Below are positions 40 through 1,044 of a stretch of DNA of 9,806 nt, one piece after another. Below the pieces are notes generated by a model. It saw only the letters and a list, made by a program, of their open reading frames with translations, did not search any database and was not told the DNA's origin. The stretch is from Escherichia coli (lineage in GTDB: Bacteria; Pseudomonadota; Gammaproteobacteria; Enterobacterales; Enterobacteriaceae): the NCBI RefSeq assembly GCF_003334355.1, contig NZ_QOWP01000058.1; one strand, written 5' to 3'. Within the stretch, counting starts at the first letter, position 1; the number at the start of each line of letters is the position of its first letter. The position numbers and the translations under genes were made by a program.

Positions 40-1044
40 TTAATGATTTTTACCAAAATCATTAGGGGATTCATCAGGGCTGGGTTTGTTTTTATCAGCC
101 ACCAGTAGCAAGGTGCGGATGACTTGCGGATGGTTAATTTGTACCAGCAGACTGCCGCAATCTTCTTTATGGGCATACATCGCGAGGCGCGGAATGGCTG
201 CCAGTCCTTGTTCGCGCAAAAGGGCGGCGCAGGCCGCGTAGCCGAAGTGGTTTTCATGCGACATGTAGCTGGCTTCTCGATCGCTAAATATATCCTGGCT
301 CCAGTAGTGTTCGAGTTTTCTCACCGCTGTGGGGTCATTAGCAACAACTTTTAACCACTCCTTAGAATGAAAATGAGTTCGCGGGCATTCAAGGCCTACC
401 AACTCATTGGCTATTTCTGGTTTTTCCGGGAGGATCAGCGCAATAAAAGGGCGGCGAACTTTGGTTATTCCTGGTAGTGCGGCAATGAGTTTGTCGGCGC
501 AACGCTGCCAGCAGCTTTCCTCTGCCAGAGAGAGATGCTTACGCAGTCGGAGATCGAATTCGTTATAGGTTTCTGAGCGATAACCATAGCCATAATCCTC
601 GTCCTGATACTGCAATGTCACTACCAGAGGATCACTCTCATAACACCGCGCAATAAACTGGCGTGCAATCACCACCTCAGTCGCATATTCCAGCCCCTCT
701 TGTTGGACGATTTCGTCGAGCAACTGTTGGCTGTCATTTTGCGCGATACAGGCTAGCGCCGCCATTGTCTGGGCCGGGACTGAGGGTTTGTGTTCGCCGA
801 TCAAGTTGATGGCCTGCGTGATGGCGGACTGCCACTCCAGTGAAAAATTTTCATAACGCCAGACAATGTTTTTTTTCTTCTCAGCTTTTTGTAGCAATTC
901 ATCACCCAGTGTCTGAATGATGCTTTCAGTGATAACAGACACCGGTTCGCCCGGCCAATTGCGATGGCTGAGTGGCGTTTTGCCTTTTTTATATTTCAGT
1001 TCCAGTTGGGCGTTATCCGCCAGCCACGGTAATTCCTTGTCCAT
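40..1044 (-). CDS. yehI: MolR-paralogous protein without a WGR domain; probable 5-prime part of yehI (ORF closes after 334 codons, 39 bp from the window edge)
   Basis: ATG at 1044-1042, TAA at 42-40. Translation aligns along its whole length with residues ~117-450 of the adjacent 1264-aa protein (shared blocks LPWLA, LSHR.FPG.PV, SLEWQ, QEG.LEYAT, F.LRLRKHLSL.EES.WQ.CA.KLIAA.P, LPEKPEIA.E, EWLK.VA.D, INHP); roughly 40 percent identity by eye. Start lies 9 nt after the upstream stop with an AAGGAAAG Shine-Dalgarno. Symbol assigned from synteny (metG-molR-yehI) rather than from recognising the sequence. Confidence 0.6.
   Translation of the reverse strand: MDKELPWLADNAQLELKYKKGKTPLSHRNWPGEPVSVITESIIQTLGDELLQKAEKKKNIVWRYENFSLEWQSAITQAINLIGEHKPSVPAQTMAALACIAQNDSQQLLDEIVQQEGLEYATEVVIARQFIARCYESDPLVVTLQYQDEDYGYGYRSETYNEFDLRLRKHLSLAEESCWQRCADKLIAALPGITKVRRPFIALILPEKPEIANELVGLECPRTHFHSKEWLKVVANDPTAVRKLEHYWSQDIFSDREASYMSHENHFGYAACAALLREQGLAAIPRLAMYAHKEDCGSLLVQINHPQVIRTLLLVADKNKPSPDESPNDFGKNH

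Follow-up and report, generated by a model that had tools for sequence, protein, structure and literature searches.

Introduction

The yehI gene of Escherichia coli carries, early in its coding sequence, a run of eight adenines (A8), and in the DNA studied here the same gene comes to an early stop. The locus therefore raises the question of whether the run is a place where the reading frame is lost by slippage, and whether it has anything to do with that stop. An initial annotation had proposed that the run is a frameshift hotspot, open to replication slippage as well as to transcriptional or translational slippage, and that it might be tied to the early stop. Here we surveyed the run in a window of 9,806 nucleotides (the whole stretch of DNA that was analysed, from contig NZ_QOWP01000058.1), in complete E. 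coli genomes and in public protein collections. Mutation-accumulation work of the Foster laboratory has established that the indel rate of E. coli depends on homopolymer length and that mononucleotide runs are indel hotspots (PMC8510543). Our search of the literature on yehI found no functional study of the gene and no mention of its A8 run.

Materials and methods

A total of 5426 complete E. coli genomes were searched with a pattern composed of an 18-nt left flank, a thymine run of n nucleotides (Tn, the run as it appears on the plus strand) and a 9-nt right flank. An exact-pattern scan over one genome each for 100,044 species gave 0 matches to the run with its flanks, with a pattern that did match the window and the loci fetched from other genomes; the result speaks only to these exact flanks in species representatives. 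A second A8 run, which lies in the neighbouring paralogue of yehI, was taken as an internal control of the same length, albeit an imperfect one. The coordinates of all features are collected in Table 1.

Table 1. Features of the yehI locus in the window
Feature	Coordinates	Strand	Basis or remark
Terminal 77 nt of an IS10/ISVsa5 (IS4-family) element	1..77	-	Sequence and 100% matches; the remainder lies past the window edge
Stop codon TAA of the truncated yehI ORF, inside the IS	40..42	-	Preceded by 12 IS-encoded residues (PDESPNDFGKNH)
yehI 5′ part, codons 1-322 of about 1210, DUF4132 protein gene, IS-interrupted	78..1044	-	Homology to annotated yehI starts at 78
A8 mononucleotide run (T8 on the plus strand) in yehI	869..876	-	Sequence and population variants T7/T9
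WGR and DUF4132 paralogue, 1264 aa, yehH/molR locus, intact	1054..4848	-	ORF; upstream of yehI
A8 run of the paralogue, at codons about 332-334 (GGG CAA AAA AAA TTA)	3847..3854	-	Sequence

The run and its place in the gene

The plus strand reads TTTTTTTT at exactly 869-876, which are nucleotides 169-176 of the minus-strand open reading frame 1044..40, in phase 0 from codon 57 and in frame. The coding strand has GAG AAG AAA AAA AAC, that is EKKKN, at codons 55-59, and the run itself occupies codons 57-59 (AAA AAA AAc). The initial annotation had described an in-frame T8 encoding EKKKN, and this reading was confirmed from the letters and from the open reading frame. No other homopolymer of the 3.6-kb gene is as long, the remaining runs of yehI being 7 nt or shorter.

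The origin of the run requires little explanation. Lysine is written in yehI with 45 AAA codons against 10 AAG codons, and the run is there because AAA is preferred, so that two lysines followed by an asparagine (AAC) give eight adenines. In dinucleotide-preserving shuffles of the window the mean number of A8/T8 runs was 1.24, and two or more of them, two being the observed number, were found in 65 of 200 shuffles; a simple model of independent bases gives an estimate of 0.28 such runs per window. The occurrence of A8 in the window is not above chance, and the run comes about as a side effect of the codons chosen.

The early stop

Positions 1-1100 of the window were matched by 5311 of the 5426 complete genomes, with the yehI homology beginning at 78, and the feature lying under the matched region is annotated as 'DUF4132 domain-containing protein YehI'. 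An intact yehI of 1210 aa is present in NBRC 3301. The protein of the window agrees with K-12-like YehI up to ...ADKNKPS (residue 322) and then continues with PDESPNDFGKNH*, which is read from an insertion sequence. The minus-strand reading of this end begins CTGATGAATCCCCTAATGATTTTGG, which we take to be the outside end of IS10. Positions 1-77/79 are identical (100%) to hundreds of chromosomal and plasmid copies, and in STK78-E the same 77 nt adjoin an annotated 'IS4-like element ISVsa5 family transposase'. Judged from these matches, the early stop of yehI is the result of an IS10/ISVsa5 insertion after codon 322, with its junction at 77/78. The case resembles known IS10/ISVsa5 inactivation in that the window end is 100% identical to many copies of the element and the yehI reading frame runs into it and stops there; it differs in that one end of the element only is contained in the window. 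The IS/yehI junction of the window is absent from all RefSeq complete E. coli genomes. The yehI gene of STK78-E is also disrupted by ISVsa5, at another position than in the window.

The A8 run was considered as the source of the early stop and was rejected, since the run is in frame and the stop lies within the end of IS10; the tie which the initial annotation had drawn between the two is not borne out. The window has the run in its wild-type length, and there it is without effect, the gene being already broken downstream by IS10.

Length variants in complete genomes

The initial annotation had suggested aligning the tract across genomes for A7, A8 and A9 forms, and such length variation is present in complete E. 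coli genomes. Exact full-length matches were obtained for T8 in 3580 genomes, for T7 in 60-63 genomes (at least 60 exact, and 63 in the band of at least 99%) and for T9 in 10 genomes, so that contracted forms make up about 1.7% and expanded forms about 0.3% of the genomes on the searched flank haplotype. In B2/ST131 strains T8 is kept together with a single-nucleotide difference in the flank, which explains most of the 1191 T8 matches with one difference. The alignments of the inspected T7 and T9 genomes placed the indel within the run each time. yehI is annotated as 'frameshifted' in the inspected T7 genomes (ST648, the MG1655 re-assembly CP025268, OkiPb01701 and 2014C-3011) and in the T9 genome Combat13F7. 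With variants of exactly one nucleotide in both directions and with frameshifted examples, the proposal of a hotspot for frameshift stands.

The run is not present in all yehI alleles. A diverged allele with 86.6% identity to the window occurs in approximately 490-500 complete genomes, which is about 9% of E. coli; in 2017C-4109, for example, in the region that aligns to 800-960 of the window, the protein reads QQAGQKENITW, where GGCCAGAAGGAAAATATCAC (QKEN / GQKEN) replaces the EKKKN segment and the homopolymer is absent.

A lesion of another kind was seen in 258E. Here the C after the run is deleted, by which T8, C and TT become T10 (at about 1529-1538 of its locus, equivalent to 869-879 of the window), and yehI is annotated as 'frameshifted'.

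Predicted frameshift products in public assemblies

Loss of one adenine (A7) gives a predicted product of 80 aa and gain of one (A9) a predicted product of 64 aa. Ten such predicted products were queried by exact sequence in a collection of 15 billion proteins and all ten were present, on contigs which come from NCBI, ENA, JGI and Logan (Table 2). An A7 product is also present in one record labelled E. fergusonii. In public databases these small open reading frames carry labels such as 'regulator' or 'N-terminal part of molybdate metabolism regulator MolR-like protein'.

Table 2. Contigs carrying the predicted frameshift products, by yehI allele
Allele	A7 product (contigs)	A9 product (contigs)
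K-12-like	at least 1000	85
ST131-type (B2)	712	63
2014C-3011-type	305	35
Window	88	108
ST648-type	37	21
Further allele (P0006)	462	
Shigella flexneri variant (P0007, named so by its sources)	414	

The commonest A7 product falls into 2688 indexed blocks, and in 2418 of them (about 90%) the longest carrying contig is below 200 kb. We read contigs of this size as belonging to draft, mostly short-read assemblies, in which runs of eight are rarely miscalled. The eight longest places of this product were fetched, and the nucleotide run was A7 in all eight. Taken over the alleles, the sequences suggest that A7 and A9 arose recurrently on at least five allelic backgrounds, recombination being a possible route as well.

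Probable replication slippage in a dispensable gene

We regard it as highly probable that the A8 run, brought about incidentally by the lysine codons of a dispensable gene, behaves as an ordinary hotspot of replication slippage. The steps may be pictured as follows. During DNA replication one strand would occasionally misalign within the run, and a loop missed by mismatch repair would leave a daughter with A7 or A9. The contraction would cut YehI to a peptide of 80 aa and the expansion to a peptide of 64 aa. Such null alleles would persist because yehI is dispensable; they would be passed on clonally and in this way could reach about 2% of the species on many backgrounds. Both parts of this account are inferred: that the variants arise by replication slippage, and that they persist because selection on yehI is relaxed. 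That yehI can be dispensed with is shown by the genome-reduced strain DGF-298, from which it has been deleted (PMC10652928), and by the insertion sequences that disrupt it in the window and in STK78-E. The run shares with the mononucleotide-run hotspots described for E. coli (PMC8510543) its eight A:T pairs, its in-run variants of exactly one nucleotide, their presence on several backgrounds and its rank as the longest run in the gene, and nothing essential sets it apart from them.

Reliability of the variants

The chief alternative to replication slippage is that the length variants are mostly artefacts of sequencing and assembly, namely homopolymer miscalls in long reads, and that the run is effectively invariant in nature. 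Several observations agree with such errors. STEC1588 (CP129263) and CFIAFB20180540 (CM143725) are contracted to T7 in the runs of yehI and of the paralogue alike, where about 0.3 such genomes would be expected by chance; these two could be error-prone long-read assemblies or mutators deficient in mismatch repair. The T7 genomes cluster by project (15 OkiPb, 3 SW0716 and 3 SMN), the OkiPb project contributing one T9 genome also, and the MG1655 re-assembly CP025268 has T7 while other K-12 records have T8. In the 40-kb neighbourhoods of three variant genomes one further frameshifted gene each was noted, and these extra frameshifts sit in short runs or in non-repeat sequence. In OkiPb01701, a T7 genome, yehM is frameshifted by a change of G4 to G5 (locus 11621-13901), and in 2014C-3011, also a T7 genome, yegV has a 1-nt deletion and a 1-nt insertion 527 nt apart, neither of them in a long run (locus 39207-40034).

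Against a general artefact stand the exact frameshift products on thousands of contigs, the commonest of them largely on contigs of the size of short-read drafts, and the A7 variant of Shigella flexneri, whose 414 contigs suggest fixation at the level of a lineage. The paralogue run, of the same length and in the same genomes, has T7 in 0.43%, and error alone cannot give the 1.7% seen at yehI. To calibrate the error on essential genes, 100 kb of the K-12 genome, taken from the mra/fts cluster and ribosomal-protein operons, were examined; no essential coding sequence there contains A8/T8, the nearest being an A7 in rplB, an A8 in the cryptic gspO and some intergenic runs. On this evidence we hold it unlikely that artefacts make up most of the variants. 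Most of the A7 and A9 forms are, in our reading, real mutations that recur and are passed on clonally, and a minority are artefacts of long-read assembly; homopolymer errors in long reads probably account for some of the T7 and T9 calls in complete genomes.

Comparison with the neighbouring paralogue

On other genomes a product of identical length (1264 aa) to the paralogue carries Pfam WGR and DUF4132. The stop of the paralogue is 9 nt from the start of yehI, and therefore the two genes are probably co-transcribed; the window also holds apbC and metG. NCBIfam gave no match for YehI and one match for the N-terminus of the paralogue, which is far below threshold (57.6 bits against a cut-off of 1000). 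The number of DUF4132 copies varies at the yehI locus: Combat13F7 (locus 16562-27763) has three DUF4132 genes in tandem instead of two, namely yehI and two paralogues, one of which is frameshifted. In K-12-like genomes yehH/molR is a pseudogene, with a C insertion (CC to CCC, plus-strand alignment column 949) and a stop at codon 275. It was considered whether the K-12 gene is broken at its own A8, and this was rejected, the frameshift being the CC to CCC change and the stop at codon 275 a separate lesion.

As a control for slippage, the paralogue run was found exactly as T8 in 3002 complete genomes and exactly as T7 in 13. At yehI the contracted form (60/3640) has about four times the frequency that it has at this imperfect control (13/3015), with a Fisher p of 1e-6; when the yehI T7 genomes were collapsed by eye to about 38 events, on the ground of likely clonal series, p was 0.004. 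This excess is not predicted by plain slippage. It could come from sequence context, from the expansion of one successful A7 clone on the K-12-like allele or from weak selection for the loss of yehI.

Possible switching or selected loss

The excess of contracted forms leads to a second alternative, in which the run is a phase-variation (contingency) switch working at low frequency, or else a preferred target of adaptive loss of function. Such a switch would act on yehI and, by polarity, might also affect the downstream yehK-yehLMPQ, and the A9 form might stay partly active by way of transcriptional slippage. The yehK-yehLMPQ cluster consists of ATPase, VWA and SWIM proteins. If this were true it would explain the roughly fourfold excess of A7 over the paralogue run. 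It also agrees with the presence of both contraction and expansion alleles on several backgrounds and with the position of the run early in the gene, at codon 57, where a switch would be most effective. The layout recalls the contingency loci of Haemophilus, Neisseria and Campylobacter, in which there is likewise an intragenic homopolymer near the 5′ end with ON (here A8) and OFF (here A7 or A9) alleles.

There are also differences. Known contingency loci typically have longer runs than A8, and beside them the yehI run is short and composed of A:T pairs. A8 is retained in about 98% of the run-bearing genomes, which places nearly the whole population in the ON state, and the run is missing from the diverged allele of about 9% of E. 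coli, hence it is not conserved as such. Neither YehI nor the paralogue has a match to a defence family in PADLOC. We therefore judge a switch or a selected loss to be very improbable, and replication slippage remains the preferred reading.

Possible recoding

The last alternative is that A8 is a programmed recoding site, by -1 ribosomal frameshifting on A AAA AAC or by transcriptional slippage, which yields a second functional product. The classical heptamer for -1 frameshifting is X_XXY_YYZ, and A_AAA_AAC lies in the zero frame of yehI in the correct phase for it. This heptamer rule has been reviewed (PMC5009743). In a reporter study of E. coli RNA polymerase, slippage was first detected at eight adenines, so that the run has the shortest length at which it is detectable (PMC6260861). 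The remaining evidence is contrary. A ribosome shifted into the -1 frame would meet a stop after 6 codons (a product of 64 aa) and one in the +1 frame after 22 (80 aa), leaving no extended alternative reading frame and no long overlapping one. The 79 nt downstream of the run have a minimum free energy of -16.4 kcal/mol, where shuffled versions of them have -17.5 +/- 3.1 (z = 0.36), which gives no stimulatory structure, and the surroundings of the run were scanned for Rfam families, terminators and promoters, none of which coincides with it. Bacterial genes typically begin to show selection against slippery A/T runs at a length of 9 nt (PMC1088944); the yehI run, with 8 nt, is under this threshold and is without a conserved layout of overlapping reading frames, and the diverged allele does without the run altogether. 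As a meaningful effect, the transcriptional or translational slippage which the initial annotation had suggested is not supported, with a run just at the threshold of detection and shifted frames that end so soon. Programmed recoding is largely refuted, and we find it scarcely credible.

A narrower resemblance concerns the A9 alleles. The 'pseudo-pseudogenes' at A9/T9 of Baranov et al. 2005 (PMC1088944) share with the A9 alleles of yehI, present in 10 complete genomes, the layout with an extra A, whereas the window has an in-frame A8, one nucleotide short of the usual threshold of 9 nt. By analogy, the A9 alleles of yehI could be partly rescued by slippage of RNA polymerase in the manner of a 'pseudo-pseudogene'.

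Implications

Taken as a whole, the first proposal for this locus is partly supported: the hotspot idea holds, the run behaving as an ordinary site of replication slippage in a gene that can be dispensed with, and the link to the early stop fails. The value of the result is mainly for annotation, as the A8 run explains the recurrent 'frameshifted' yehI pseudogenes and the open reading frames of 64 aa and 80 aa in the databases; annotators should bear in mind that long-read assemblies probably contain some false frameshift calls in yehI. On the mechanisms of slippage the result adds nothing new, the run being a further unremarkable indel hotspot of the mononucleotide type. Should the excess of A7 reflect selection, there would be a slight indication that the loss of yehI can be advantageous, which would be of some interest for the function of the DUF4132 proteins.
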